Shown here in pieces: positions 2,645 through 57,186 of a DNA stretch of 64,000 nucleotides. The translations under genes were made by a program, and so were the position numbers. Source of the stretch: Candidatus Woesearchaeota archaeon (GTDB taxonomy: Archaea > Nanobdellota > Nanobdellia > Woesearchaeales > ARS49). The DNA is taken from assembly GCA_016215315.1 (NCBI GenBank), contig JACRKG010000045.1, positions 19,204-83,203 of the forward strand. Direction: 5' to 3'. Positions within the stretch are counted from its first letter, which is position 1; every line of letters begins with the position of its first letter. Under the pieces are notes generated by a model, which did no database searches, had not been told where the DNA came from, and worked only from the letters and a program-made list of their open reading frames with translations.

Positions 2645-3010
2645 TTACAATCGTATAAGACCTAAACTTATCTTTATCGCTTCGTCAATTCCGCTTTTTG
2701 TTTCAACGTCTAGTTCCCCTAGTTTTTTAATAAGTCTTCTTTTATCTACTGCTCTTATTTGATTAAGCAACGCTTTAGAATCTTTCTGCAGTCCTTTTCT
2801 TTTCTTTATAAAAACCTCAAAGGGATAGATTTTATCGACTTTTTGAGAAGTTACTGGCGCAATGATAGTTATTGGACTGTAAGTGTTTCCATAATCATTT
2901 TGAATAATTACTGCAGGTCTTGACTTTTTAATTTCATGACCAATAGTGGGATCTAAATTAACAAGCCAAATATCTCCTCGTTTAACTTCAAAAATTCTTA
3001 TTTCTACCAT
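2645..3010 (-). CDS. mazF: MazF/PemK-family type II toxin endoribonuclease
   Basis: GDIWLVNLDPTIGHEIKKSRPAVIIQND...SPITIIAPVTS signature of PemK/MazF. Confidence 0.8.
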   Translation of the reverse strand: MVEIRIFEVKRGDIWLVNLDPTIGHEIKKSRPAVIIQNDYGNTYSPITIIAPVTSQKVDKIYPFEVFIKKRKGLQKDSKALLNQIRAVDKRRLIKKLGELDVETKSGIDEAIKISLGLIRL

Positions 3011-3225
3011 TCTACTTCTTTAGAAGCAGTCTCCCACTCGTTTAAATTTGCCAAATCTTCTTTACCTAAACTAGAATAACCTGCAATTAATTTTTTTTTT
3101 AAATTCTCATGTCTTACTTGAAAAATTAATTTCTGAATTGCAACATCATAACTATCTCTTTTTAATCTTAATTTGTCTAAACTGTGTTTTGTTCTTTTGT
3201 GAAGTTTAATGGTTGTTATGTCCAT
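3004..3225 (-). CDS. Putative antitoxin partner of MazF-like toxin
   Basis: 73-aa ORF immediately upstream, 7-nt overlap with toxin start; typical TA arrangement. Confidence 0.5.
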   Translation of the reverse strand: MDITTIKLHKRTKHSLDKLRLKRDSYDVAIQKLIFQVRHENLKKKLIAGYSSLGKEDLANLNEWETASKEVEW

Positions 3226-3273: not shown

Positions 3274-4221
3274 CTATTTCACCAAATTCAACTTATCATG
3301 CATATCCACGCTGGCCATGTGTTGATCAAAGTCTTTTTCATATTTTGTCAGCAAGTATAATTTCATTCTTTCTAATTCATCTTTATTTACTCTTGCCATT
3401 TTGTCTACGTCTATTAATGCATATGGATAGCCTGGAAAAATTAAATCAACACTGTTTTTTGCCAACAATTCTATTAATTCTTCACTGAACTCGCTAATAT
3501 CTAATCTAAAAACATATCTTGATTTCTTGTGCATTCGAACAAAAAATCTGTTGTCATCACATTTATAATACCATTTACTTAATTTTGCTAACTTACTAAG
3601 AACAACACTTGCGCTTTGGCTGTTATCACATAATATTGTAGATGTTTTACTTAATCCTGCAAGAACTACTTTCTTTTCTTTGCAAGTTTCTAACAATTCC
3701 TCATAATGAACTTTATCAAAATCATCAAATTCCAAATCGCCATCTCTAACAATAAAATCACAGTCCAACAATTTATTACATGCTTTAATTTCAAAGATTT
3801 TTCGAATCTTCTCAGCAATAACACTTGGCTTAATCAAGTGCTTGTTTTCGAACGCTTCGAAAACAAATGCATCTTTTTTATCGAAAAAAGTAACTTCATA
3901 AAAAATTCCTTCAGAATTTTTGAGATTAACCAGTATTAAAAATTCGTCGAGATTTTTTTTAATTCTTTTATTATCTTGGTAAACACTCCAATAAATTTTT
4001 ATTAATTGAACACTAAAATTAACTCCGCCAATTATTTCCCCATTACCCCCATCTACAAAACCAATCTTTTTAGTGGAAACTGTCTCGTTGATAGGAAAAA
4101 AAGAAGTTTTTTCTATAGGCACTTTTTTATTTGGAAGAATGATTTCTGAGGCAGCCACGGTAAAACTCTTTTTAAGGCTTTCAGCCACCTTGTCTAATTT
4201 TTCAAAATGCATAATTTTCAA
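3274..4221 (-). CDS. NurA-like (RNase H-fold) nuclease, tentative
   Basis: IGFVDGGNGEI motif resembling NurA vDGS active-site motif, acidic motifs DGDLEFDD, LIDVDK; size consistent with NurA; no herA neighbour. Confidence 0.35.
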   Translation of the reverse strand: MKIMHFEKLDKVAESLKKSFTVAASEIILPNKKVPIEKTSFFPINETVSTKKIGFVDGGNGEIIGGVNFSVQLIKIYWSVYQDNKRIKKNLDEFLILVNLKNSEGIFYEVTFFDKKDAFVFEAFENKHLIKPSVIAEKIRKIFEIKACNKLLDCDFIVRDGDLEFDDFDKVHYEELLETCKEKKVVLAGLSKTSTILCDNSQSASVVLSKLAKLSKWYYKCDDNRFFVRMHKKSRYVFRLDISEFSEELIELLAKNSVDLIFPGYPYALIDVDKMARVNKDELERMKLYLLTKYEKDFDQHMASVDMHDKLNLVK

Positions 4222-4375
4222 AAAATAAGCAGATTATTAAGTTTTATCTAGCTTTGCGAGTTTAAAAAAGTAAGATTTATAAATAAACACGTTTTCCCAC
4301 TGCAAGATGAGGGCCACGTTAGATTTACTTCTAGACATTAACAATATGTCTTAGGTAGATCTATAAAAAAATAGC

Positions 4376-4477
4376 GCTCTGGTAGTCTAGTGGCCTAGGA
4401 TGGAGCCCTGTCGAGGCTCCGACCCGGGTTCGAAATGGTTTAATGAGCTACAAACCAGGAATGTCCCGGCCAGAGCG
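4376..4477 (+). tRNA. tRNA-Asp(GTC) with about 29-nt intervening sequence in the T-loop (position 59/60-like)
   Basis: Acceptor GCTCTGG/CCAGAGC, anticodon stem GAGCC/GGCTC, loop CTGTCGA, T-stem CCGGG/CCCGG with TTCGAA-[29 nt]-T. Confidence 0.5.
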
Positions 4478-4492
4478 TAAGAAATATGTTGT

Positions 4493-4614
4493 GGGCCGGT
4501 AGCTCAGCCTGGTAGAGCACCTCACTTTTATCCTTCGGGAGGAAATGAGGTGGTCGCGAGTTCAAAACTTCATAACGCAAAAGTGCGTTTTGAGTGAACG
4601 TCTCGTCCGGCCCG
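4493..4614 (+). tRNA. tRNA-Lys(TTT) with two introns (14 nt at 37/38, about 34 nt in T-loop)
   Basis: Acceptor GGGCCGG/CCGGCCC, D-stem GCTC/GAGC, anticodon stem CCTCA/TGAGG enclosing CTTTTA+14 nt+A, T-stem GCGAG/CTCGT with TTCAAA-[34 nt]-T. Confidence 0.45.
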
Positions 4615-4635
4615 TCAACACTTAACAATCATAAA

Positions 4636-4878
4636 ATGACAGAAAAAAAGTTTGAAATCACCCAACATAGGTTAGTACCGAAACACTCAGTACTTTCCGA
4701 AAAAGAAGTAACTACTTTGTTAAAGAATTATTCTCTAAAAGATTTACCTAAAATGCATCTTACAGACCCAATAATAGAAACATTAAAAGCAAAAGAAGGG
4801 GATATAATAAGAATTGAAAGAAACAGTTTAACTGCAGGAAAAAGCGTTTTTTACAGGAGGGTTATTGCAAATGCTTGA
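4636..4878 (+). CDS. rpoH: DNA-directed RNA polymerase subunit H (Rpb5 homologue)
   Basis: HRLVPKHSVLSEKEV..LPKM..DPI....GDIIRIERNS.TAG...YRRVI; start moved to ATG 4636 because the 4594 ORF start overlaps the tRNA. Confidence 0.85.
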   Translation: MTEKKFEITQHRLVPKHSVLSEKEVTTLLKNYSLKDLPKMHLTDPIIETLKAKEGDIIRIERNSLTAGKSVFYRRVIANA

Positions 4879-26407: not shown

Positions 26408-27778
26408 TTGACCAAAGAAATTATTGAAATATTGAAGATAATTTTCATAAATAATTTAAATGTTCAGTTAATTCTCAGTTTAATGATTCAAATAGCTTCA
26501 GAGCAGCCAAAAACTTGCGGTAGCGAAGGTTCTGGACAATTATCTGCTTCAGCTCAAGAAGAATTAGAAAAACAAGCATACAGAATTGTTGGAAGACATA
26601 GTGCAGTAAAGACTTGCGGCTGGACTAAAAACATGATTCGCGGTGAAGGCGGCTGCTACAAATTAAAGTTCTACGGCATAATGAGTCATCAATGCATGCA
26701 AATGACAACAAGTATTAGTTGTGCTAATAGGTGTACTTTTTGTTGGAGGGGCTACAAAGCACCAGTAGCAAAAGAATGGAAGTGGGGTGTTGATGATCCA
26801 GAATTTATTCTAGAAAATAGCTTAGAAGCACATCACGACTTAATTGTTGGCTTTAAAGGAGGTAAAAAAACAAACGAAAAATTATTTGAAGGTTCTCAAG
26901 AAGTAAAACATGTAGCTCTTTCACTGACTGGAGAACCTATAACTTACCCAAGAATAAATGAATTACTAGATTTATTTAATCAAAAAGGAATTTCTACTTT
27001 TTTAGTAACAAATGCGCAATATCCTGAACAAATAAAAAATCTTAAACCAGTAACTCAGCTTTATGAAAGCCTAGATGCACCAAACAAGGAATTACTTAAA
27101 GAAATTGATAAACCATTATTTATTGATTTCTGGGAAAGAGCAAATCAAAGTCTTGATTATTTGAAAGAAAAAAAACAAAGAACTTGTATTCGATTGACGA
27201 TAATTAAAGGAGTTAATGATGTTGAGCCAGAAAATTATGCAAAACTAATACTGAAAGGAATGCCTGATTTCATTGAAGTAAAAGCATACATGTGGGTCGG
27301 AGCATCAAGAGAAAGACTAAACAAAGCAAACATGCCATTACACGAAGAAGTAATTGACTTCACGAAAAAATTAATTCAATACTTGCCAGATTATGACATA
27401 GTTTCAGAACACATTCCTTCAAGAGTAATAATGTGCGCTAAAAAGAAATTCTTCAAAAATGGAAGATGGCACACGTGGATTGATTTCCCAAAATATCACG
27501 AACTAGTAAATTCCGGAAAAGAATTTGTGACAGCTGATTATTTGAAACCCACACCAAGTACAGGACTTTCAGGCAAAGGAACTATCGATAGAAGAAAAGA
27601 ATGGGAAGAAATAAAGTTAGAAAAAAAAGAAAAACAAAATGAGGAAAAACAAAACAAAGAAAAAGAATCTCAAGAAGTTTACGTTAACGAAACAATGCCC
27701 GAACTAGATTTCTGGCAAAAAAAAGAAGAACAAACAACAGAACAAAATACAGAACAAAAACCGCCAGGTGGATGCTAA
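26408..27778 (+). CDS. taw1: tRNA 4-demethylwyosine synthase (Taw1/TYW1, radical SAM); true start possibly 26483
   Basis: KTCGWTKNMIRGEGGCYKLKFYGI.SHQCMQM....CANRCTFCWR; CxxxCxxC; K/E-rich C-terminal extension. Confidence 0.75.
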   Translation: MTKEIIEILKIIFINNLNVQLILSLMIQIASEQPKTCGSEGSGQLSASAQEELEKQAYRIVGRHSAVKTCGWTKNMIRGEGGCYKLKFYGIMSHQCMQMTTSISCANRCTFCWRGYKAPVAKEWKWGVDDPEFILENSLEAHHDLIVGFKGGKKTNEKLFEGSQEVKHVALSLTGEPITYPRINELLDLFNQKGISTFLVTNAQYPEQIKNLKPVTQLYESLDAPNKELLKEIDKPLFIDFWERANQSLDYLKEKKQRTCIRLTIIKGVNDVEPENYAKLILKGMPDFIEVKAYMWVGASRERLNKANMPLHEEVIDFTKKLIQYLPDYDIVSEHIPSRVIMCAKKKFFKNGRWHTWIDFPKYHELVNSGKEFVTADYLKPTPSTGLSGKGTIDRRKEWEEIKLEKKEKQNEEKQNKEKESQEVYVNETMPELDFWQKKEEQTTEQNTEQKPPGGC

Positions 27779-42187: not shown

Positions 42188-42285
42188 AAAATAAAGCACT
42201 GCCATGCGCTGAGGACTCAATACGGTAGAAAATGTGCAATGCCATGTGCTGCAACCTCCGCAGTCCGCCGACTATGGAACTGCAG

Positions 42286-42324
42286 GCGAGAATTCTTAAC
42301 AGAGTTCTCGCTATGAGGTTTTTT
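42286..42324 (+). terminator. Terminator-like hairpin (10-bp stem GCGAGAATTC/AGTTCTCGC) followed by T6, within a GC-rich structured region 42196-42324
   Basis: Hairpin plus oligo-T immediately downstream of gene 41831-42187. Confidence 0.35.
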
Positions 42325-42444
42325 AATTTTTGAAAGGAAAAAATAAGGTGGCACTAAAATAGTATTTTGTTATACATAACATAAAGTATGTTATTCATAA
42401 CAGAAAAATTTCAGAGTGCCTTGCAAAATTCGTAAAATATCTGC

Positions 42445-44984: not shown

Positions 44985-45095
44985 AAAAAATACTGCGTAT
45001 TTTTTAGTTTATAAAACTTTTTAGGAAAACAAGCAACTCAAGCGTGATGCGCACTACTGTGCTTACCCGCAAATACTTTTTTTCAGGTTCATGAT

Positions 45096-45168
45096 TAGCT
45101 CCGCTCGGATTTGAACCGAGGTCTAGAGGGCCAGAACCTCTTATGCTTGACCACTACACCACGGAGCT
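45096..45168 (-). tRNA. tRNA-Gln(CTG)
   Basis: Reverse complement folds: acceptor AGCTCCG/CGGAGCT, anticodon stem AGAGG/CCTCT loop TTCTGGC, T-arm CTCGG-TTCAAAT-CCGAG. Confidence 0.7.
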
Positions 45169-45204
45169 ATTTGATAACAGAAACTAGATTAGTATTATAA
45201 ATTT

Positions 45205-47164: not shown

Positions 47165-47706
47165 TTATAATTAGCCCATGTTTGAGCTTGACCTTTGAAT
47201 TTTTCACTCGCTTCTATTCTGTGTATTACACTTTCATTACAAGGCTTATATTTTTTCTTTACTTCTTAATAAGCGGTGAAAACATGGTCAAACAAACTAA
47301 TGTATTTGAAAAGATTGAACAATTTAAAAATGTTTTGAAGCCTTTAACGGTTGGAAAAACAGATCAAGACATAAAATTAATGCTTTGTCATTGTAAGCAT
47401 TACAATCTCAGTCTAAGAAAAAGCTTAACTACAGAAGAATATGCTTTAAATGATTTTCTTATGAAAAAAGGTTTGAATGCTAAAACTATTTATGAAAATT
47501 TTGTATTCATAGATTATCCTCAAAGCATAAAGAACTTGTTAGCAGAGAGGAAGATTTCCATAAAAGAAGCGCAATCGCGTTTTATGGCAATTAAAAAATT
47601 GGTAAACGTGAGGGATGGTAAAGATTTAATGACTGAAATAAAATCAGTCATAAGGAGGTTAGAATGGTCTGGGCTCAACAAAACTATCACAACACAGGAA
47701 ATTTAA
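47161..47706 (+). CDS. Hypothetical protein (181 aa)
   Basis: ORF overlapping by 4 nt. Confidence 0.45.
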   Translation: MIIISPCLSLTFEFFTRFYSVYYTFITRLIFFLYFLISGENMVKQTNVFEKIEQFKNVLKPLTVGKTDQDIKLMLCHCKHYNLSLRKSLTTEEYALNDFLMKKGLNAKTIYENFVFIDYPQSIKNLLAERKISIKEAQSRFMAIKKLVNVRDGKDLMTEIKSVIRRLEWSGLNKTITTQEI

Positions 47707-48497
47707 GCAAAACTCAAGAAAAAAAGAGAAAAAGAAAAAGATTTCCTAATGTATTTTTCAAGAACGAAATAACTGAATTATTTGACAATATTGAAGATCT
47801 TAAAACGATGATGGCTAGTTTTTTGGCTTTCTTTTGCGCATTAAGAAATAGTGAAGTATGCAAACTAAAATGGCAAGATATAGACTTAGAAAACAAAAGA
47901 TTAAAGGTTGTGGACGGTAAAAACCACAAAGACGGATTTATACCAATAAGTTCTGTATGCATACCAATACTCAGAAAATGGCGGCAAATAAACTCTGAGT
48001 CAGAATATTTTTTGTCGGGGGAAGCAAAAGGGCTGCCGTTCTTAAGCTCGCATGCATTACTGGAGCGCTTTAAAGTTGCATTATCCAGAGCAAATCTTGA
48101 CATTCCAACAGAGAAAAATGCGGGAGGAAATCAACAGCATCAATACAAATTTCATACTTTGAGGCACTCTAGATGCACCCACTTATTGAACAATGGTGTG
48201 CCAATACAAAAAGTTCAGCACTTCATGAGGCACGACAAAATAGAAACAACAATGCATTACACGTGGATCTTAGACACAGAATTAAACAAAATGGTAGAAA
48301 AAGTTGATACTTCGCCAATGAAAATGTATCAAGAAATAATGCCGGAAAACAATCAATTTACTCAAACACAAACAATAGTGCAGCAAGAACACAGCAATCC
48401 AATAGAAATCGCCAAAAGACGCTTAGCATTTGGAGAAATCAGCCCCAGAGAATTTAAAAGAATAGTTGGAGTGCTTCAAACACCGCTAAGTGTCTGA
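47664..48497 (+). CDS. Tyrosine recombinase/integrase (XerC/XerD/phage integrase family)
   Basis: ALRNSE (R), HTLRHS (HxxR), RHDKIETTMHY (R/H...Y) catalytic signature. Confidence 0.75.
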   Translation: MVWAQQNYHNTGNLSKTQEKKRKRKRFPNVFFKNEITELFDNIEDLKTMMASFLAFFCALRNSEVCKLKWQDIDLENKRLKVVDGKNHKDGFIPISSVCIPILRKWRQINSESEYFLSGEAKGLPFLSSHALLERFKVALSRANLDIPTEKNAGGNQQHQYKFHTLRHSRCTHLLNNGVPIQKVQHFMRHDKIETTMHYTWILDTELNKMVEKVDTSPMKMYQEIMPENNQFTQTQTIVQQEHSNPIEIAKRRLAFGEISPREFKRIVGVLQTPLSV

Positions 48498-48524
48498 AAA
48501 GTTACTTCTTTTTTTCAGTCCATT

Positions 48525-48800
48525 TTGGACTGCTTTTTTTCTTCAACCCAATATTTATTCTCACTTATCTTTCATAAGAATATGAAAAATAAAAAAATAA
48601 AAAAGCAAAAAAACAGATATAGGTTCAACTTTATTGAAGAAGAACCGGCAGTTTCTTTTTGTGAAATTTGCGGCGTCCCTTCAAAAGACGCTAAAGTAAT
48701 GTTTTCTAGAAAATTCAAGTGCGAAATTTGTACAACCTGCTACGAGGAAAGACTAAATGAAAACACAGGGGATGTTATAGATCCAAAATGGTGGAAATAA
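48525..48800 (+). CDS. Zinc-ribbon small protein
   Basis: CEICG...CEICTTC. Confidence 0.4.
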   Translation: MDCFFSSTQYLFSLIFHKNMKNKKIKKQKNRYRFNFIEEEPAVSFCEICGVPSKDAKVMFSRKFKCEICTTCYEERLNENTGDVIDPKWWK

Positions 48801-48831
48801 AAGTTCAAAAATATCAAGGAGGAAAAACAAA

Positions 48832-49251
48832 ATGACAAATGAAATACAAAAATATGATCCGCAGGCTTTTGCGGCGCAGAGAGTTTATGACAGGCTCACA
48901 GAGCCTTTAGAAGATTTAACGTCAGTTCAACAGATTAACACTATTGCTGTAGGTGTTGGAAACTTGAAAAGAACTCTTGAAGAAGTAGTTGAAAAGTTAA
49001 AAGACAAAGCTGTTGACGAACAAAAGAAAGTCGTTGGAGAAAAAGACGATAAAGTGCAAAATGTTTATTCTGGACTTGATAAAGCCAGAAGAACTAACGA
49101 CTTTGAAATGTACGACAAAGTGAGCATGGATGTAATCAGAGCAATCATGCAGGCTAAAGGCTCAGTTTCTGATTTGAGATTGTTACAAGCTGGAGATTTT
49201 GATGGTTACGTGAAAAGTCAAAAACTTCTTACAGAAGGTGATGCGAAATGA
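48832..49251 (+). CDS. Hypothetical protein
   Basis: AGGAGG SD. Confidence 0.45.
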   Translation: MTNEIQKYDPQAFAAQRVYDRLTEPLEDLTSVQQINTIAVGVGNLKRTLEEVVEKLKDKAVDEQKKVVGEKDDKVQNVYSGLDKARRTNDFEMYDKVSMDVIRAIMQAKGSVSDLRLLQAGDFDGYVKSQKLLTEGDAK

Positions 49252-49778
49252 ATGATTTAGACCAAAAACTCAAACAGTATGAGACTACTGCTGTTGATGT
49301 TACTAACAAAATGTATGATCCTAATCTCAGAACTGAGAGCAGCAAAGAGGTTTTAGAGAATTTTCCGAATGTCAGGCTGGCTTCGGAAAAACAAGAAAAC
49401 AAAGCAGTTATTGGGCGGAAAGGAATTAATTTCCTTTCTGCCTTATTTTTATCAGCAGGAATAGGCATCGGAGGATACTTTGTTGGCAACTATCAAGGAA
49501 AACATCATGGATTCGAGAAAGGACAAGAAATATTACTGAGAGAAATTACAAGAAATTATTTCGACAGCAAAACAAGAAGTTATCTAGGGCATGAAAGGTT
49601 TTACACAAAAATAATGAGTCCTGCAATTCTTGGAAGGGAACCGACAAGCAAAGAGTTTGATATAATTCTTGATGAAGTACTAAACACTATTGTTCCAGAA
49701 AGCGGCTTGCCTCTAAGAGAACACATAACTGAAAGTTCAAAACATGGCTACTTTTATTTTGGAGGTGTAAAAAAATGA
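49248..49778 (+). CDS. Hypothetical membrane-associated protein
   Basis: One TM (INFLSALFLSAGIGIGGYFVG). Confidence 0.45.
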   Translation: MNDLDQKLKQYETTAVDVTNKMYDPNLRTESSKEVLENFPNVRLASEKQENKAVIGRKGINFLSALFLSAGIGIGGYFVGNYQGKHHGFEKGQEILLREITRNYFDSKTRSYLGHERFYTKIMSPAILGREPTSKEFDIILDEVLNTIVPESGLPLREHITESSKHGYFYFGGVKK

Positions 49779-50170
49779 AAGCAATACAAATTTTCTTTTT
49801 TTCTTTACTTTATTTTTTAGTTTATTTAACAATAAGTTTGGCTATTGATTTGTATTTCGGCTTAGAAACGAGTATTCCTGAACTTGTAACTATTGGTTTG
49901 ATGTTTAACCTTTTACTGATTGTTTTGCTTGTTTTTGAAGTTCCAGACAAGATTGCTGAAAAGTTTGCCAGAAAAAAGGAAAGTGTTTTGTTCTACATAA
50001 CTGAAGACGTAAAAGATGATAAAAATACTTCTGAATTGTTGGAAACTCTTGAAGGAAACGCAACAAAAATAGAATCCCCTAAGAAGTCTGAAGAAAAATC
50101 CAATGAGAAAATCATAGAAGCTGAATTTGTGAAACAAGTTCAAGATCAAAAAGAAGAAAACATATACTGA
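49775..50170 (+). CDS. Membrane protein
   Basis: Two N-terminal TM helices. Confidence 0.45.
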   Translation: MKAIQIFFFSLLYFLVYLTISLAIDLYFGLETSIPELVTIGLMFNLLLIVLLVFEVPDKIAEKFARKKESVLFYITEDVKDDKNTSELLETLEGNATKIESPKKSEEKSNEKIIEAEFVKQVQDQKEENIY

Positions 50171-50182
50171 GGAGGTAAAAAA

Positions 50183-50533
50183 ATGGAAACAATTAACATT
50201 TTGCTTAAAATTTTGATGTACATTTTAATAATTACAACCCCATTAATACTTGGGTCAAAATTAGTTAACGCTTACCCTTACAATACTATCAGCAGTCAGG
50301 ATCAGCAAAAGATTGACGAAATCATGGCTCCATTCAACAAAGTATTCAATTTCGTTAGAATCGCAGCTGGTTCTGTAGCAGTTTTTGTTCTTATTTTAGC
50401 TGGAGTGGTTTACATGACTGCTGGAAGTGATGTTGGAAAGAAAGAGAAAGCCAAAAACATGGCCACCGGAGTTATTGTTGGACTAATGATTTTTGTTGTA
50501 GCACCAACAGCAGTACAATACCTAATAACTTGA
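50183..50533 (+). CDS. TrbC/VirB2-like pilin candidate
   Basis: 116 aa, long signal/TM, second hydrophobic helix near C-terminus, GGAGG SD. Confidence 0.4.
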   Translation: METINILLKILMYILIITTPLILGSKLVNAYPYNTISSQDQQKIDEIMAPFNKVFNFVRIAAGSVAVFVLILAGVVYMTAGSDVGKKEKAKNMATGVIVGLMIFVVAPTAVQYLIT

Positions 50534-50543
50534 GGAAAAAATA

Positions 50544-51491
50544 ATGAAAAAACAATCTAGATACTTACAAGTATCAATAATTTTAATTGCATTATTGCTC
50601 ACTTTTAATTCAGTTAGTGCGAGCCACAATGATGATGAAGAACCTCCAGATAAAGGCTTTTTTGGCAACATCTTTGATGACTTAACTGATGCAATAACTG
50701 CAATACCTGAGATGTTATTAGATTTGTTTCTCGACATAATTAACGCTCCAATTAGACCTTTATTGAGTTTTATTAAAACTCTTCTAGGTGAGCCACCGAG
50801 CACAAGTATTTTTAAAAGTATTTGGAGTATAGTTGTCTACATTTTCAGTTTTTGTTTTAGTTTGATTCTTGTTTTTTGCGGTTTCAGTTTTATTCTTTCA
50901 GGGCATGATGTTGAGAAAAGAGAAAAAGCTAAAGATTGGCTAAAAAACACATTAATATTGATTATTTTGTTGCCTGCAAGTTACTTTATTTATGAATTAA
51001 TTCTTCAATTTAGTGCAGGACTTACAAATTTTGTCTTAAACATAATACGTCCAGAATTTTTTTTAATAACTTCAAATAATCTTGGAGATATTTTCTTAAG
51101 CCTCGCGTTATCAATACCTTACTTAATTGTCTTGTTATTAACTGGCATTGTTTTAGTTATTCGTTATGCACTCATTAGTGCAGGAGTGATATTTTTTCCT
51201 ATAGGAATCTTTTTTTATTTCATCAGTCCACTTAAAAGTTATGGTAGTTTTATAATTAATTTTTTGATGATAAATATATTTATAGGTTTCATTAACGCAT
51301 TGTTTTTGCTTGCATTTTCTAAGCTTGTTGAACTACCTGTATTTAGTACTTTGAAAATTCTAGTCATGATCTCAGCTTTTTTGATTATTGATTTAATAAC
51401 AATTTTTGCGATGGTTTTCGCACTCATCAAAGCAGCAGTAAACTTCGGAAAGACCGTTGTTAATCCAGTAGTTAAAATTGTAAAACCATAA
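50544..51491 (+). CDS. Polytopic membrane protein (VirB6/TrbL-like candidate)
   Basis: Signal peptide plus at least 6 TM helices. Confidence 0.4.
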   Translation: MKKQSRYLQVSIILIALLLTFNSVSASHNDDEEPPDKGFFGNIFDDLTDAITAIPEMLLDLFLDIINAPIRPLLSFIKTLLGEPPSTSIFKSIWSIVVYIFSFCFSLILVFCGFSFILSGHDVEKREKAKDWLKNTLILIILLPASYFIYELILQFSAGLTNFVLNIIRPEFFLITSNNLGDIFLSLALSIPYLIVLLLTGIVLVIRYALISAGVIFFPIGIFFYFISPLKSYGSFIINFLMINIFIGFINALFLLAFSKLVELPVFSTLKILVMISAFLIIDLITIFAMVFALIKAAVNFGKTVVNPVVKIVKP

Positions 51492-51495
51492 AAAA

Positions 51496-52449
51496 ATGAA
51501 TGATACTCAAACTTTTCGGAAATTGAATGTTGTTGACTTCTTTTGCGGAGCTGGAGGATTCAGCAAAGGTTTCGAGCAAGCAGGCTTCAACATATTGGCA
51601 GGAATAGATTTTAATGAGAATGCAATAGCCACGTTCAAACAAAATCATTCTGGTAAAGGGGTTGTCAGGGACATAAAAAAGTTGTCTCTAAAAGAGTTTA
51701 ATGAGCTCACAGGATGTTCTGGCGTCGATGTTTTGATCGGTGGCTTTCCGTGTCAAGGATTTAGTCTTCTTGGGAAGCGTAACAAAAAAGATCCTAGAAA
51801 TCTTTTATACAGAGAATTATTACGTTTCATTGAAGGATTAAAGCCTGAGTTTGTTATTCTTGAAAATGTGAGGGGTTTGGCTTCAATGAAGGATTCTAAA
51901 AATAATTCTGTTTTATCCTCTATACTGCAAGAAATTATTTCACTAGGTTACTGTGTTAGTTACAAAGTTTTGCTGGCAAGCGATTATGGAGTTCCACAAA
52001 ACCGTGAGCGATTAATCATTTTTGCACAGAAAATAAACTTTTTTGACATTCCAAAAATTGAAAATAAAACAACAGTGATTGAAGCTTTGCAAAACATTCC
52101 TGAAGGATTAAATGCTCACATTGTTGTAAATCATAAGCCAGAATATTCTGAGCGTTTAGCACAAGTTGCACAGGGTAAAAGTCTTGGAAAATTCAGATCT
52201 TGCATGAGACTTCAGGCAGATAAGCCAAGCAACACAATAACGAGCGGAGACTTAATACATCCAACACTCAATCGTTTCTTAACTCCTAGAGAAAGCGCGC
52301 GATTACAAGGTTTTAGCGACGATTTTGTTTTTTGCGGTGGAAGAGAAAGTATCAAGTTGCAAATTGGTAATGCAGTTCCTCCACTACTTGCTAAAGTTCT
52401 TGCAAATCAGCTATTAGCTGAGATTAATCGAGGTGTTTCAAATGTATGA
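51496..52449 (+). CDS. dcm: DNA (cytosine-5)-methyltransferase, no adjacent restriction enzyme recognised
   Basis: Motifs I FFCGAGGFS, IV GFPCQGFS, VI ENVRGL, VIII QNRERL, X GNAVPP. Confidence 0.9.
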   Translation: MNDTQTFRKLNVVDFFCGAGGFSKGFEQAGFNILAGIDFNENAIATFKQNHSGKGVVRDIKKLSLKEFNELTGCSGVDVLIGGFPCQGFSLLGKRNKKDPRNLLYRELLRFIEGLKPEFVILENVRGLASMKDSKNNSVLSSILQEIISLGYCVSYKVLLASDYGVPQNRERLIIFAQKINFFDIPKIENKTTVIEALQNIPEGLNAHIVVNHKPEYSERLAQVAQGKSLGKFRSCMRLQADKPSNTITSGDLIHPTLNRFLTPRESARLQGFSDDFVFCGGRESIKLQIGNAVPPLLAKVLANQLLAEINRGVSNV

Positions 52450-55195
52450 AATACCTCAAGAATTGCAATATTCTGAAAAGATTGTTTTTGGTTTAACATT
52501 GAAACAAACTTTTGTTGTATTAAGTACAGGAGTACTGGTCTATTTTACAATTTTCAAATGGCTCATCAGTCCTTGGATAAAATATTCTTTAGCTTTGTTG
52601 ATTGTTGTTCTTGGTGTTTTGTTTACTTTTTTCAAACTAGACCAGTTAATCTCGAACTTTTTGTTGTGGATTTGGAGCAAAAGAATTAAGTTTTTTCAAA
52701 GCCAATCATTGTTCGGAGTTCAAAAATTTGAGAATGATTTCATGTTTGTTAAGGGCGTTAGGACTGTTGTTCTTGAAGTTTTTCCAATGAATTATGGAAT
52801 AAAAAACAATACAGAACAAGAAAGTATTGTTAAAATTTTTAGAAAATTGTTGCAAAGCATTGATTATCCTACACAGTATTTTATGAGGACAGAACCTTTA
52901 GAAATAAAGAAATACCTTGAAGTTTTAGGAAATAAAGTTTCTGAAGTCTCTGCAAAAACTCAAAACAAAATTTATGAGGAACAATTTGCAGGTCTTGAAA
53001 AGCACTTAAATCAAACAATAAGTGAAAATAATCTTTGTAATAGAAAATTCTACATAATAATCCCAGAACTCGCTGGATTAGAAATTCAAGTCAAAATAGT
53101 AGAAGACAAAATCAAAAATCTCGGATTAAAAAGCAAAAGACTTATTGGTAAAGAACTTGAAAAACTCATCAAAGAATTTATTAATCAAGAAAACAAAGAG
53201 TTAAAGAATTGCAAGAATCATTTAGAAATTGGCAAGACTTTTCACAGAGTAATAACTGCTGTAGGCTATCCGAGAATAGTTGAAGCAGGATTTCTCGACA
53301 AAATAATCACTTTACAAGGAAATTTCGACTTAAGCATACATATACAACCAAAACAGATTAGCAAAACTATTGTTGATTTGAACAGAGACTTGCAAAAACA
53401 AAGAAGCGACTTGTACTCAGAACAACTAAAAAATATAATCAATCCAAGTTTAGAGATAAAATATGAAGATACTCGAAGAATTCTTGAAGAATTGCAAAAA
53501 GGAAAAGATAAACTCTTTGACGTCAGTTTATACATTAATTGCCGAGCTAATAAGTTAGATGAATTAAATCTCTTAACCCGTAAAGTCGAAGCAGAACTTA
53601 ACAGCACATTAATCATTCCAGAAGTTCAAAATTTCAAGCAATTACAAGGCTTGAAGAGTGTTGCTCCAACAAGCAAAAATATTTTGAAAGTTAATAGAAA
53701 CATTACAACAACGGCATTATCAGCATTTTTTCCTTTTACAAGCAAATTCTTAGAAATAGATAATTCTGGAGTGTGGTTTGGCTTGAACAAAAACAACATT
53801 CCAATAATCATTGATCCGTTCAAGTTGAGCAATCCTAATGGAGTTATATTGGCAACTTCTGGAGCAGGAAAAAGCTATTTAGCTAAATTGTTGATTTCTA
53901 GACAATTATTGACTGGAAGTCAAGTTATTATTATTGATCCTCAAGGAGAATACACTGATTTAGTGCAAAAATTTAATGGTCAAATTATTGATTTACACAC
54001 GAAAAGCAAAACAATAATTAATCCTTTGGATTTAATGAATAAAACTTACGAGGATAAACGTTTGTTCTTAATGGATTTAATAAAAGTAATTTTTGGAGAA
54101 ATAAGCCCCCATCAGAAAAGCATTATTGACAAAGCAATAAGCTTAGCTTACACAAAAAAAGGAATTACTGATGATCCGAATACTTGGAATAAGGAGCCTC
54201 CGAAACTAGAAGATGTTCTTCAAGAAATAGTAAAAATGAAGGCAAAGGCCAGTGAAGTTACTGAGTACGGCATTGCAGCTCTAGAAAACAAATTAGAACT
54301 TTACGTCAATGGTGTTTTCAAATTCTTAAATCAGCACACTCAATTAAAACTTAATAATCAATTGATTTGCTTTAATATCCAGAAATTACCTAATCAAGTT
54401 CAGCCGGTAATGATGTTCTTAATTTTGGATTTTGTTTATACAACAATGCAAAAAGAACTCAATAGAAAGATTTTACTTATTGATGAGTCATGGAAGTTAT
54501 TGTCAAGAACGGAAGATGCAGGCTACGTTTTTGCTATTGTAAAAACTTGTCGTAAGTTCAATATGGGACTTTTGCTTATCAATCAAGAAGTTGAAGGATT
54601 GCTAGAAAGCAGTGCAGGAAAAAGTGTTTTGGCAAACAGTTCATACACAATATTGCTTAAGCAGAAACCTTCAGTAATCAAGCAATTAAAAACAACTTTT
54701 GACCTTTCAGATTATGAAAGAGATTACTTGTTAACTGCTAATGTTGGTGAAGGAATACTTATTACGGATCAAGAGCATAATGAGCTAAAAATTATTGCTT
54801 CTAAAGCTGAGCACGATTTGATTACTACTAATGCTGACGAGAAATTACAACAAAAGAATAATAAGGTTGAAAAAAATGAAGACAACAAGCCAAAAGAAGA
54901 AAAACCTGTTAAGAAAACAGAACTTGATTTTACAAAAATAGCTTACGACAAAGAAATTCTTAGTAAAGAACAAATTGAGCTGTTGAAAAATAAAGGTTAT
55001 CAAGAATTTTCAGAAAAAATCTTCAGTACAACAAAAGCATACTTTGTAAAAAGCCAAAATAGTGAAGAAATTACTTGTTTATTCAATCTTTGCACAATAA
55101 CTGACTATTTGAGAAGTAAAAGTTTTAGCGCAAAAATAGTCAAGAAAAACAAGAAATTCTTTTTAGAGGTAGAAAAATGCCAGAAAACTCATTAA
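52433..55195 (+). CDS. VirB4/TrbE/CagE-family conjugative ATPase with N-terminal VirB3-like TM segment
   Basis: N-terminal 2 TM helices; Walker A ATSGAGKSY; Walker B LLIDESWKLL. Confidence 0.7.
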   Translation: MFQMYEIPQELQYSEKIVFGLTLKQTFVVLSTGVLVYFTIFKWLISPWIKYSLALLIVVLGVLFTFFKLDQLISNFLLWIWSKRIKFFQSQSLFGVQKFENDFMFVKGVRTVVLEVFPMNYGIKNNTEQESIVKIFRKLLQSIDYPTQYFMRTEPLEIKKYLEVLGNKVSEVSAKTQNKIYEEQFAGLEKHLNQTISENNLCNRKFYIIIPELAGLEIQVKIVEDKIKNLGLKSKRLIGKELEKLIKEFINQENKELKNCKNHLEIGKTFHRVITAVGYPRIVEAGFLDKIITLQGNFDLSIHIQPKQISKTIVDLNRDLQKQRSDLYSEQLKNIINPSLEIKYEDTRRILEELQKGKDKLFDVSLYINCRANKLDELNLLTRKVEAELNSTLIIPEVQNFKQLQGLKSVAPTSKNILKVNRNITTTALSAFFPFTSKFLEIDNSGVWFGLNKNNIPIIIDPFKLSNPNGVILATSGAGKSYLAKLLISRQLLTGSQVIIIDPQGEYTDLVQKFNGQIIDLHTKSKTIINPLDLMNKTYEDKRLFLMDLIKVIFGEISPHQKSIIDKAISLAYTKKGITDDPNTWNKEPPKLEDVLQEIVKMKAKASEVTEYGIAALENKLELYVNGVFKFLNQHTQLKLNNQLICFNIQKLPNQVQPVMMFLILDFVYTTMQKELNRKILLIDESWKLLSRTEDAGYVFAIVKTCRKFNMGLLLINQEVEGLLESSAGKSVLANSSYTILLKQKPSVIKQLKTTFDLSDYERDYLLTANVGEGILITDQEHNELKIIASKAEHDLITTNADEKLQQKNNKVEKNEDNKPKEEKPVKKTELDFTKIAYDKEILSKEQIELLKNKGYQEFSEKIFSTTKAYFVKSQNSEEITCLFNLCTITDYLRSKSFSAKIVKKNKKFFLEVEKCQKTH

Positions 55196-56232
55196 TAGAT
55201 AACGAATTATTTATTATTTCACTGTTTCTTATAGGAACTCCTTTAATTATTATAGGTTTCGTAAACACTAATTATTACATCATTCCAAATTTTTCAATGT
55301 ACAATTTATTTCTTGCCTTGCCGGGATTTGTTGGCATAATTGTATTCATTTGCGTTTTAACATACCTAATTCTAAAGATTTTTCACTTAGTACAGTATTT
55401 GTTTGTCCGGCGTAAAATAATTAGTTTAAAACAAAAAGAACAAACAATAAAAACACATCAAGAAAATCACATTGCTAAATTAAGCGAAGAGTTAGATAAA
55501 ATATTTCTTGAAGCAAAACCATTACTAAAAGCAGAAAACACCTTTGAAAACAAGCAAAAACTTGAAGAAATACAAAAAGAATTATTACAATCAAAATTCA
55601 AAGACTTAGAATTACACAAGAAAAGAATTCAATACGTTCAACAAATCGGAGAAAAAGTAAGAGAAATAGAAATCTACTTGAAAAGTAAAGAAAAAGAAAT
55701 ATTAGGTAAAGAAGAACAAAGATTAAAAGAATTAAAAGCAGAATGTGGGTACGTCAAAGGCGCAAAATTATCTGATTGGGATAAAGAATTGTTATTAAAA
55801 AGAGGTTTTGCCAAATTACAATGTAATGAGTTTTGTGGACGTGGAAATCCAGTATATTTCTTAAAACCGAGAGATAAAGAAACTCCAGAGCACTTCTTTT
55901 TAGTTAGGCATACTCAAGAATATCTTGAAAATAAAGGGATAACTGCAACAACACCTGAAAAAAGAGATGCAGATGTTATCTTTGAAATAAATGGAGTAAC
56001 TTATGCAATAGAAGTTGAAACTGGAACTTATCCTGAGAAGAAACCTGAAGAATTTGAAAATAAAATAAAACAATGCAATGACAAATACGGCAACAATTGG
56101 ATGTTTTTAGTGGTTCATAGAGATCTTATTTCATTCTATAAAAAGTACAATGCAAAAACATATCATCGTGAACAGATGGTGGAGGTGCTGGATGTAATAA
56201 CATCAACAAATCACATCAACAAAAATAATTGA
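55177..56232 (+). CDS. Membrane-anchored coiled-coil protein with C-terminal possible nuclease-like domain
   Basis: 2 N-terminal TM, K/E coiled coil, C-terminal DADVIFEINGVTYAIEVETG block. Confidence 0.45.
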   Translation: MPENSLIDNELFIISLFLIGTPLIIIGFVNTNYYIIPNFSMYNLFLALPGFVGIIVFICVLTYLILKIFHLVQYLFVRRKIISLKQKEQTIKTHQENHIAKLSEELDKIFLEAKPLLKAENTFENKQKLEEIQKELLQSKFKDLELHKKRIQYVQQIGEKVREIEIYLKSKEKEILGKEEQRLKELKAECGYVKGAKLSDWDKELLLKRGFAKLQCNEFCGRGNPVYFLKPRDKETPEHFFLVRHTQEYLENKGITATTPEKRDADVIFEINGVTYAIEVETGTYPEKKPEEFENKIKQCNDKYGNNWMFLVVHRDLISFYKKYNAKTYHREQMVEVLDVITSTNHINKNN

Positions 56233-56330
56233 AAAATTGATGTGGGATTTATAAAAAAATCACATCAATAAATTTGACAAAAACACAGAAAACTCTGAAA
56301 GAAAATCAGAAAACACATCAACAAAATTTC
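56200..56330. repeat. Iteron-like repeats CACATCAA(C/T)AAA (4 direct and 1 inverted copy)
   Basis: Copies at about 56201, 56212, 56261, 56314 and inverted TTGATGTG at 56237. Confidence 0.55.
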
Positions 56331-56375
56331 CACTTATATACATATAATTTTACTTAATATGGGGAGGGCAATAAA

Positions 56376-56651
56376 ATGGAAAATGAAACACAACAAAACA
56401 CAACACAAAGTGTGACACCAAGTGTGCCGCAAAGTACAACGCCAGTTTTCAAACCTAATGTAAATCAGGACGATAGCGTTGGTTCTTTTATCAGAAAACA
56501 AAACATCAAAACCAAAATTAATCAACTAGGCTGTCAAGTCGGAGTAGATTTTTATCCTCGCTTTAACGAATTTCTAGAAAGCACGATAGTAAAAGCAATC
56601 TTTAGAACTAAATGCAACAGAAGAAAAACTGTTCGTGGGATGGATATCTAA
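56376..56651 (+). CDS. Hypothetical protein
   Basis: GGGGAGGG SD. Confidence 0.4.
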   Translation: MENETQQNTTQSVTPSVPQSTTPVFKPNVNQDDSVGSFIRKQNIKTKINQLGCQVGVDFYPRFNEFLESTIVKAIFRTKCNRRKTVRGMDI

Positions 56652-56652
56652 A

Positions 56653-57186
56653 ATGACTTACGCAGTATATGTGAGAGTCAGCACGGAAGAGCAGAATTTG
56701 GATATGCAAAAACTTGAGATAAGCAATTATTGTCAGAGAATGGGCTGGAATTATGTGATTTACGAGGAGAAAGAAAGTACTAGAAAAACACGTCCAGTAA
56801 AACAATGGTTATTGCAGCAATTGCGTCTGAAAAAATTTGGTGGTGTGATCGTTTGGCGTTTGGACAGATGGGCTAGAAGTTTGCAAGAGTTAGTCATGGA
56901 TCTCGAGGAAATGACAAACAAAAACATAAAATTCATTTCACTTCGTGATAATGTTGACTACACTAGTGCAAGTGGTCGAGCGTTTACACAAATTTTGTGT
57001 GTCTTTGCAGAGTTCGAAAGACAATTAATAAGAGAAAGAACTCTAGCAGGATTAGCCAGGGCAAAAGCCGCAGGCATTAAACTCGGTCGTCCAAAAGGCA
57101 GCAAAGATGGAAAAGTCCGTCGGAAAAGCGGATACTACATGCGCTACATTCTGGAAAACAATAAGCACAAAGAATTCGCTCTTTGA
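56653..57186 (+). CDS. Serine recombinase (resolvase/invertase family)
   Basis: YVRVSTEEQ catalytic Ser motif; start taken at MTYAVY. Confidence 0.8.
   Translation: MTYAVYVRVSTEEQNLDMQKLEISNYCQRMGWNYVIYEEKESTRKTRPVKQWLLQQLRLKKFGGVIVWRLDRWARSLQELVMDLEEMTNKNIKFISLRDNVDYTSASGRAFTQILCVFAEFERQLIRERTLAGLARAKAAGIKLGRPKGSKDGKVRRKSGYYMRYILENNKHKEFAL

Follow-up and report, generated by a model that had tools for sequence, protein, structure and literature searches.

A 64,000-nucleotide (nt) stretch of contig JACRKG010000045.1 from a Candidatus Woesearchaeota archaeon, referred to throughout as the 64-kb window, very probably carries two functional tRNA genes, for tRNA-Asp(GUC) and tRNA-Lys(UUU), which are interrupted by protein-spliced introns of the bulge-helix-bulge (BHB) type. 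One such intron would lie at position 59/60, within the T-loop, in each gene, and tRNA-Lys would possess another at position 37/38. The archaeal RNA polymerase operon, made up of rpoH, split rpoB''/rpoB' and rpoA'/rpoA'' (Pfam), is found directly downstream of the tRNAs, in DNA with a guanine-plus-cytosine (GC) content of about 32%. When species-representative genomes were scanned with RpoB'', 19 archaeal loci were recovered at 62-91% identity. All 19 come from metagenome-assembled genomes (MAGs) of uncultured Woesearchaeota or of the 'Nanoarchaeota' of GTDB, some of them mislabelled as Methanosarcinales, and the closest, L001, belongs to the groundwater MAG JACRAI01 (RpoB'' 91% identity). Since its RpoB'' relatives all fall within these groups, the host is, by this marker, a Woesearchaeota-like archaeon of the DPANN assemblage (Diapherotrites, Parvarchaeota, Aenigmarchaeota, Nanoarchaeota and Nanohaloarchaeota).

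The two tRNA genes and their predicted splice junctions

An earlier note on this DNA had placed insertions of 29 and 34 nt at position 59/60 of the two T-loops, together with a canonical 14-nt intron at 37/38 of tRNA-Lys. These coordinates, lengths and positions proved exact, and removal of the insertions yields tRNAs that ARAGORN accepts. In Sprinzl numbering the T-loop insertion point is 59/60 in both genes (TTCGAA-intron-T in tRNA-Asp and TTCAAA-intron-T in tRNA-Lys), and a stable internal hairpin is present within each of the two T-loop insertions. The predicted parts of the genes are as follows.

4376-4477, + strand: tRNA-Asp(GTC), with a 29-nt T-loop insertion
4376..4434, + strand: tRNA-Asp(GTC) exon 1, positions 1-59 (ARAGORN after splicing, unbiased search)
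4435..4463, + strand: putative tRNA-Asp BHB intron, 29 nt, at 59/60 (BHB fit and ARAGORN-valid splicing)
4464..4477, + strand: tRNA-Asp exon 2, positions 60-73, discriminator G (ARAGORN after splicing)
4493-4614, + strand: tRNA-Lys(TTT), with two insertions of 14 and 34 nt
4493..4530, + strand: tRNA-Lys(TTT) exon 1, positions 1-37 (ARAGORN after splicing, unbiased search)
4531..4544, + strand: putative canonical tRNA-Lys BHB intron, 14 nt, at 37/38 (BHB fit)
4545..4566, + strand: tRNA-Lys exon 2, positions 38-59 (ARAGORN after splicing)
4567..4600, + strand: putative tRNA-Lys BHB intron, 34 nt, at 59/60 (strict hBHBh' fit)
4601..4614, + strand: tRNA-Lys exon 3, positions 60-73, discriminator G (ARAGORN after splicing)

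On the unspliced window ARAGORN reports a single tRNA, tRNA-Gln at 45095-45169 on the - strand, and misses both disrupted genes. The Rfam tRNA model, applied to the whole window at its gathering threshold (a score of 29), likewise calls tRNA-Gln alone. When 4300-4700 was scanned permissively, Rfam returned two sub-threshold matches to tRNA, at 18 bits, each covering the 5' two-thirds of its gene. The lack of a call by ARAGORN or by the covariance model, with partial matches that reach 18 bits where the gathering score is 29, is what could be said for decaying tRNA pseudogenes that have acquired random T-loop insertions. The misses are not evidence of pseudogenes, however, because it is the introns that interrupt the genes in the raw sequence. 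Once the insertions are removed, ARAGORN finds a tRNA-Asp(gtc) of 73 nt and a tRNA-Lys(ttt) of 74 nt, both regular cloverleaves with 7-nt T and anticodon loops restored (spliced T-loops TTCGAAT and TTCAAAT, respectively). The stems and conserved nucleotides of the spliced products are intact, no second tRNA-Asp or tRNA-Lys was seen within the 64-kb window, and the conserved position directly before the essential rpoH operon also speaks against decay. The pseudogene explanation is thus very unlikely, and it is weakened further by the related loci described below.

An unbiased search led to the same junctions. When all BHB candidates in each gene were enumerated and the combinations accepted by ARAGORN kept, tRNA-Asp gave one solution only and the expected solution ranked top for tRNA-Lys. 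Registers displaced by 1 nt were rejected, their products being 71-72 nt long with T-loops of 5 nt. Across the whole window, 56,473 BHB candidates on both strands were removed one at a time and ARAGORN was run on each result; new tRNAs appeared at the tRNA-Asp and tRNA-Lys genes only, with removal of the 29-nt insertion as the sole hit at tRNA-Asp, the remaining four matches being edge artefacts around the intact tRNA-Gln. A tRNA-Ser(tga) label, which ARAGORN assigned to the tRNA-Lys gene when only the T-loop intron had been removed and the anticodon-loop intron was placed at 35/36 instead of 37/38, was also rejected, because a long variable arm is missing from the gene, the anticodon in the BHB register is UUU, and L015 has an intronless tRNA-Lys(TTT) as the orthologue. 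This label is a concrete case of isotype mis-annotation arising from the ambiguity of short introns.

The BHB template consists of a 4-bp central helix, two 3-nt bulges each cut after the second nucleotide, and outer and inner flanking helices. Evaluated at the exact junctions which restore the cloverleaf, this 3-4-3 template fits all three. At 59/60 of tRNA-Asp there is an outer helix of 5 bp (CCGGG/CCCGG), bulges AA-A and TG-T (hyphens marking the cuts) and an inner helix of 6 bp (TGGTTT/AAACCA), with a central helix, TTCG/GGAA, in which three of four positions are paired; the G57.G mismatch makes this motif near-strict, not strict. At 37/38 of tRNA-Lys the outer helix has 7 bp (CACCTCA/TGAGGTG), the bulges are TA-T and AA-A, the inner helix has 2 bp (CC/GG), and the central helix CTTT/GAGG is paired 4/4, two of its pairs being G.U. 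The 59/60 motif of tRNA-Lys is a strict hBHBh', with an outer helix of 5 bp (GCGAG/CTCGT), bulges AA-A and CG-T, a central helix TTCA/TGAA that is paired 4/4 by Watson-Crick pairs throughout, and a 3-bp inner helix (CTT/GAG) followed by AACGCA/TGCGTT.

Random junctions in the window provide the background for these fits. A central helix with at least 3/4 pairs occurs there at a frequency of 3.6e-3 and one with 4/4 pairs at 5.8e-4, whilst the combination of a 4/4 central helix, an outer helix of at least 4 and an inner helix of at least 3 is found at 3e-5 per fixed junction. Given these frequencies, three fits at three pre-specified junctions are far beyond chance; a rough product, assuming independence, would put the joint probability at about 1e-10.

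The geometry suggests how the precursors would be processed. Archaeal tRNA splicing proceeds by EndA cleavage, which leaves 2',3'-cyclic phosphate and 5'-OH ends, and by RtcB ligation, with possible circularisation of the intron. In the two transcripts, the 4-bp central helix would arise from T-loop nucleotides 54-57 (UUCR) and a YGAA-like sequence close to the intron's 3' end, with the T-stem serving as the outer helix and the hairpin internal to the intron as the inner helix, so that the splice sites would fall two nucleotides into each 3-nt bulge. EndA would cut both bulges, leaving the ends named above, and an RtcB-type ligase would join the exons, whilst the excised intron may circularise. 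Ligation would restore the 7-nt T-loop (UUCGAAU or UUCAAAU) and the anticodon loop, the T-loop/D-loop elbow being able to form only after splicing. In tRNA-Lys two independent BHBs would be processed. We infer cleavage and ligation, as well as the identity and type of the enzyme.

Predicted intron distribution and covariation in related loci

The order tRNA-Asp, tRNA-Lys, rpoH is kept in most of the 19 related loci, 17 in all. In L002 and L003 inspection shows that tRNA-Asp is absent from the locus, and a hyper-disrupted form of the gene, considered for both, was rejected. Interruptions were mapped by gap-tolerant alignment, followed by enumeration of deletions with ARAGORN and T-arm checks and then by BHB scoring, which gave the following predicted introns.

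tRNA-Asp, 59/60 introns: window 29 nt, L001 25 nt, L005 42 nt, L008 83 nt, L013 13 nt, L014 32 nt, L017 114 nt
tRNA-Asp, 37/38 introns: L004, L005, L008, L010, L013, L014, L017
tRNA-Asp, intronless: L006, L007, L009, L011, L012, L015
tRNA-Lys, 59/60 introns: window 34 nt, L001 31 nt, L003 49 nt, L004 17 nt, L006 51 nt, L010 39 nt, L013 27 nt, L017 122 nt, L018 32 nt
tRNA-Lys, 37/38 intron: most loci
tRNA-Lys, intronless: L015
tRNA-Lys, D-loop intron near 20/21 (junctions approximate): L002 3631-3654, L003 about 3586-3603, L005 3619-3640, L013 3641-3658

The tRNA-Lys of L003 contains three introns, in the D-loop, at 37/38 and at 59/60. A tRNA-Asp intron at 67/68 or 72/73 in L006 and L010 was dismissed as an alignment artefact, since the gene ends there and the supposed exon overlaps tRNA-Lys. 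On a rough neighbour-joining tree of RpoB'' the 59/60 introns are scattered patchily over the whole clade, a distribution compatible with ancient introns that were repeatedly lost or with introns gained time and again.

The orthologues in L001 hold the same three introns with altered intron sequence and length. Their exons differ from those of the window by compensatory substitutions in the acceptor, D and anticodon stems: in tRNA-Asp, pair 3:70 changes from T-A to C-G and pair 12:23 of the D-stem from C-G to G-C, and a change is also found at the base of the anticodon stem. These compensatory changes exclude pseudogene drift. Insertions in 16 genes spread over a deep clade, all placed at one and the same nucleotide and carrying covarying BHB helices, also speak against pseudogenes. 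The mature sequences are the same in the intronless orthologues (both tRNAs in L015; tRNA-Asp in L006, L007, L009, L011 and L012).

Covariation was assessed on 16 T-loop BHB cores from both tRNAs, drawn from 11 sources (the window and 10 of the related loci) and aligned in fixed register. Paired cells amount to 90.1%, versus 72.4 +/- 2.1% in shuffled alignments, and none of 500 shuffles reached either the observed pairing or the observed covariation score. Sliding the 3' strand as a control left 31-54% paired, versus 90% in register. Taken helix by helix, the outer helix is paired in 100% of cells, the central exon-intron helix in 96.9% and the inner helix, held to strict register, in 64.6%; changes on both sides are found in 8 of the 12 pairs. 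Position 57 of the T-loop covaries with the intron base opposite (57:y-5), as A-U in eight cores, G-C in five and G-U in one, the only unpaired cells being those of tRNA-Asp in the window (G.G) and its L001 orthologue (G.A), where the mismatch is conserved. Furthermore, the tRNA-Asp of L005 (3421-3567) has the mature T-loop TCCAAAT, with C for U55, and its 59/60 intron carries the matching TGGA. A second replacement of the almost universal U55 by C was observed in the predicted mature T-loop, TCCGAAT, of the L002 tRNA-Lys (3610-3731).

These data also bear on whether the insertions might be retained as extra arms protruding from the mature T-loop. The stable internal hairpin of both T-loop insertions would suit such an arm, yet the conserved T-loop/D-loop elbow could not survive an insertion at 59/60, and the conserved pairing of T-loop nucleotides 54-57 with the intron is incompatible with a folded T-loop. 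The lengths in orthologues, 13-122 nt across both tRNAs and zero in some, fit spliced-out sequence and not a functional arm. Moreover, a 59/60 BHB intron of another DPANN archaeon has been cut by its EndA in vitro (PMC3239211). Retention is accordingly the least credible of the explanations weighed here, being extremely unlikely, and removal of the insertions by splicing is greatly preferred.

Several considerations nonetheless weigh against two spliced, functional tRNAs. The whole case is one of sequence analysis. Neither an EndA nor a ligase gene was found in the 64-kb window, and no EndA homologue in the fetched related loci, the search for EndA being by tblastn with the Methanocaldococcus jannaschii protein (a query verified against PDB 1A79 at E = 8e-111). 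The G57.G mismatch in the central helix of tRNA-Asp, which is G.A in L001, departs from the textbook strict motif. Finally, the junctions in the relatives were picked by BHB quality among ARAGORN-valid solutions, which biases the pair counts toward the model; since the T-loop must have 7 nt, however, the junctions there can move by about +/-1 nt at most.

The longest 59/60 introns are those of L017 (3338-3451 and 3557-3678) and L008 (509-591), which are 83-122 nt in length with GC contents of up to 0.56. Some archaeal tRNA introns encode C/D-box guides, and these long GC-rich introns might encode a small RNA.

The splicing enzyme and comparison with known systems

The earlier note argued that two adjacent 59/60 introns imply a splicing endonuclease of relaxed specificity. 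This does not follow from the window alone, because both tRNA-Lys motifs are strict, that of tRNA-Asp is near-strict with one mismatch, and position alone demands no relaxed recognition. Archaeal EndA recognises the BHB regardless of its place in the tRNA and of the mature tRNA domain, as for example in rRNA processing stems. It is possible, if rather doubtful, that the introns are genuine BHB introns for which an ordinary EndA of strict specificity suffices and which imply nothing about the enzyme. This would accord with the strict 3-4-3 hBHBh' form of both tRNA-Lys introns, each with a 4/4 central helix, with the retention of both 3-nt bulges and both flanking helices in the tRNA-Asp intron, and with the general independence of BHB recognition from the tRNA domain.

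The same motifs can be read in the opposite direction. Judged by the relaxed motif classes hBH, HBh' and BHL, both tRNA-Lys introns are strict, whilst the purine-purine mismatch of tRNA-Asp lies in the central helix next to the 5' bulge, which it effectively enlarges, and is shared with L001. In the clade as a whole, strict register leaves the inner helix just 65% paired; several of the introns keep no more than 0-1 inner pairs beside the bulge and so resemble hBH motifs. Typical alpha4 enzymes process only strict motifs at 37/38 (PMC3239211). Kaneta et al. 2018 (PMC5829648) describe DPANN genomes, including one of Woesearchaeota, as encoding an alpha4-type EndA with an extra L3 loop, a feature correlated with a larger number of disrupted tRNA genes. 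Because the tRNA-Asp mismatch is conserved, because several relatives lack inner pairs by the bulge, and in view of that report on DPANN EndAs, a relaxed-specificity endonuclease is still plausible, albeit not required.

Positions 59/60 and 20/21 are among the standard non-canonical insertion sites of archaeal tRNAs (Yoshihisa 2014, PMC4090602), and BHB introns of the T-loop, D-loop and acceptor stem have been reviewed (PMC6379350). It had been held that 59/60 introns are known mainly from Thermoproteales and a few other lineages. They are, however, documented in the DPANN archaea, to which the window itself belongs: in ARMAN-2 ('Candidatus Micrarchaeum'), tRNA-Cys(GCA) has a 59/60 intron and tRNA-Pro(GGG) has introns at 53/54 and 59/60 (Fujishima et al. 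2011, PMC3239211), and the tRNA-Cys intron is the one cleaved in vitro by ARMAN-2 EndA (PMC3239211). The resemblance extends to the shortness of the introns, the BHB at the junctions and the failure of standard finders to detect the genes, and the tRNA-Pro introns are strict hBHBh', as in tRNA-Lys here. By contrast, the isoacceptors are Cys and Pro in ARMAN-2 and Asp and Lys in the window, the tRNA-Cys intron of ARMAN-2 has a relaxed hBH motif, and the ARMAN-2 enzyme is a three-unit epsilon2 EndA, whereas Woesearchaeota are reported to have the alpha4 form with the L3 loop (PMC5829648).

A second point of comparison is provided by the multi-intron tRNAs of Crenarchaeota and Thermoproteales (Sugahara et al. 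2007, 2008; in PMC4090602), in which a gene may hold up to three BHB introns, 37/38 is combined with non-canonical sites (20/21, 56/57, 59/60) and introns turn over between related species (PMC4090602). Intron transposition has also been described for Thermoproteales. These organisms differ in being hyperthermophilic members of the TACK group (Thaumarchaeota, Aigarchaeota, Crenarchaeota and Korarchaeota) with an (alpha-beta)2 EndA bearing a crenarchaeal loop, while the host here is a DPANN archaeon of 32% GC. The 14-nt intron of tRNA-Lys is, meanwhile, ordinary and near the minimal length. Like other canonical archaeal 37/38 introns it has the anticodon stem as its outer helix, nucleotides 32-35 paired with the intron and two 3-nt bulges, and it shows no difference of note.

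The closest precedent by lineage is the survey of Kaneta et al. 2018 (PMC5829648), which covers one Woesearchaeota and one Pacearchaeota genome. It reports non-canonical and multiple introns, together with incomplete predicted tRNA sets in DPANN genomes. It is a genome-level tally, and its main text gives neither the intron positions found here nor the Asp/Lys/rpoH synteny nor the clade-wide recurrence of 59/60 introns. Within the library that could be searched, no description of intron positions in Woesearchaeota specifically was found. The incomplete tRNA sets noted there suggest hidden disrupted genes, as is confirmed here. The two genes thus add a further member to a type of disruption already described, from a lineage in which hidden genes of this sort had been expected.

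For annotation, the consequence is that two essential tRNA genes of the window go undetected by ARAGORN and by the tRNA model of Rfam. Since standard finders miss such genes, the tRNA complements of DPANN MAGs, and inferences on completeness and auxotrophy that draw on them, are underestimated where BHB-aware tools are not used. The Asp/Lys/rpoH synteny also provides a clean orthologous series, with 0 to 3 introns per gene at the D-loop, 37/38 and 59/60, which would lend itself to work on how introns are gained and lost and on the co-evolution of this turnover with the splicing endonuclease of DPANN archaea. The accepted view of how tRNA introns function in archaea is unchanged by these findings.

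The proposed rpoH transcription unit and other features of the window

The region around the tRNAs contains three further elements.

4276..4285, + strand: TATA-like box TTTATAAATA, probable promoter of the tRNA-Asp/tRNA-Lys(/rpoH) unit (conserved; promoter function putative)
4307..4375, + strand: probable transcribed 5' leader, one long hairpin ahead of tRNA-Asp (minimum free energy (MFE) fold)
4636..4878, + strand: rpoH, RNA polymerase subunit H, 80 amino acids (Pfam RNA_pol_Rpb5_C, E = 1e-25, residues 6-76)

The mechanically defined rpoH open reading frame (ORF) opens at GTG 4594, and its first 14 codons had been thought to overlap tRNA-Lys, favouring an internal start. In fact seven codons (4594-4614) overlap the tRNA, the other seven lying in the 21-nt spacer, and the internal start nevertheless held up. 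The evidence supports the ATG at 4636 as the true start, because the Rpb5_C domain would then begin at residue 6, the relatives' RpoH N-termini agree in all having 5-12 residues ahead of the HxLVPxH motif, and L001 has no start codon at all upstream of its rpoH ATG.

The spacer between the 3' end of tRNA-Lys and the rpoH ATG, 21 nt in the window (4615-4635) and 14-28 nt in 10 further loci, is by its length too short for a separate BRE/TATA promoter (BRE, B recognition element). At promoter distance upstream of rpoH there is no TATA-like sequence and the GC-rich tRNA exon is found instead. A box is present further upstream: in the window, L007, L009, L011, L012 and L017 a conserved ATG(G) is preceded, at a distance of 30-31 nt, by TTTATAAA, and a similar layout of box and ATG is seen in L001, L005, L013, L014 and L015. 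In the window TTTATAAATA stands 31 nt before the ATG(G) at 4307 and about 100 nt upstream of tRNA-Asp. The short spacer, the lack of a TATA-like sequence at promoter distance before rpoH and the box upstream of tRNA-Asp together lead us to infer a single primary transcript that runs from the leader through tRNA-Asp and tRNA-Lys into the rpoH operon. This arrangement suggests that the 5' end of the RNA polymerase mRNA would be made by tRNA 3' processing.

The putative leader is about 69 nt long in the window and 60-90 nt in the relatives, the hairpin layout recurring in most related loci; the MFE of the window's hairpin is -17.1 kcal/mol, and those of the relatives range from -14 to -30 kcal/mol. 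Within the subclade of L007, L009, L011 and L012 a consensus fold comprises 17 pairs, three of them with compensatory changes; the consensus covers these four of the 11 leader sequences. The ATG at 4307 also opens a micro-ORF of 9-17 codons, which is poorly conserved. The leader element might serve as a processing signal, act as a small RNA or encode a leader peptide.

It is attractive, albeit unlikely, to consider that the structured leader and both tRNAs constitute the 5' part of an rpoH-rpoB-rpoA transcript in which release or translation of the polymerase mRNA is coupled to tRNA splicing. Anciently retained T-loop introns would in that case hold the tRNA elbow unfolded until EndA and ligase had acted. 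Among the leads from this analysis, only such a link between tRNA processing and the RNA polymerase operon holds a higher potential.

Elsewhere in the window, two GC-rich regions stand out. The intergenic island at 42188-42330, of about 50% GC against a 32% background, carries repeats of the motif TGCCATG[CT]GCTG, and a T-run comes after its 10-bp hairpin, GCGAGAATTCT...AGAGTTCTCGC; the island might represent a small RNA that is not annotated, or else a 3' untranslated region with a terminator. The stretch at 1260-1440 contains the inverted repeats GGTTCGCAGTTTATGGTT / GAACCATAAACTATGAACC within a doubtful TTG-initiated ORF of 75 codons (1220-1447), and is possibly a structured RNA. No credible Rfam match was obtained for these GC-rich islands, which were scanned at 1268-1333 and 42201-42323.

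At about 47664-57186, Pfam revealed a cluster whose gene content is characteristic of conjugative or mobile elements that have integrated. Its genes include the following.

47664-48497: tyrosine integrase (Pfam)
50544-51491: protein resembling a type IV secretion system (T4SS) pilin (Pfam)
51496-52449: C5 cytosine methylase (Pfam)
52433-55195: PrgI and VirB4/TraG-like ATPase (Pfam)
56635-57186: serine resolvase (Pfam)

The cluster lies about 2.5 kb from tRNA-Gln (45095-45169, - strand), and no att-like repeats were found between that gene and the putative element. A TYW1/Taw1 radical-SAM enzyme of wyosine formation is encoded at 26408-27778 (+ strand). Finally, upstream of the two disrupted tRNAs and on the opposite strand (Pfam), a NurA-domain gene adjoins a MazF/PemK toxin gene and its small upstream partner ORF, probably the antitoxin (2645-3225, - strand).

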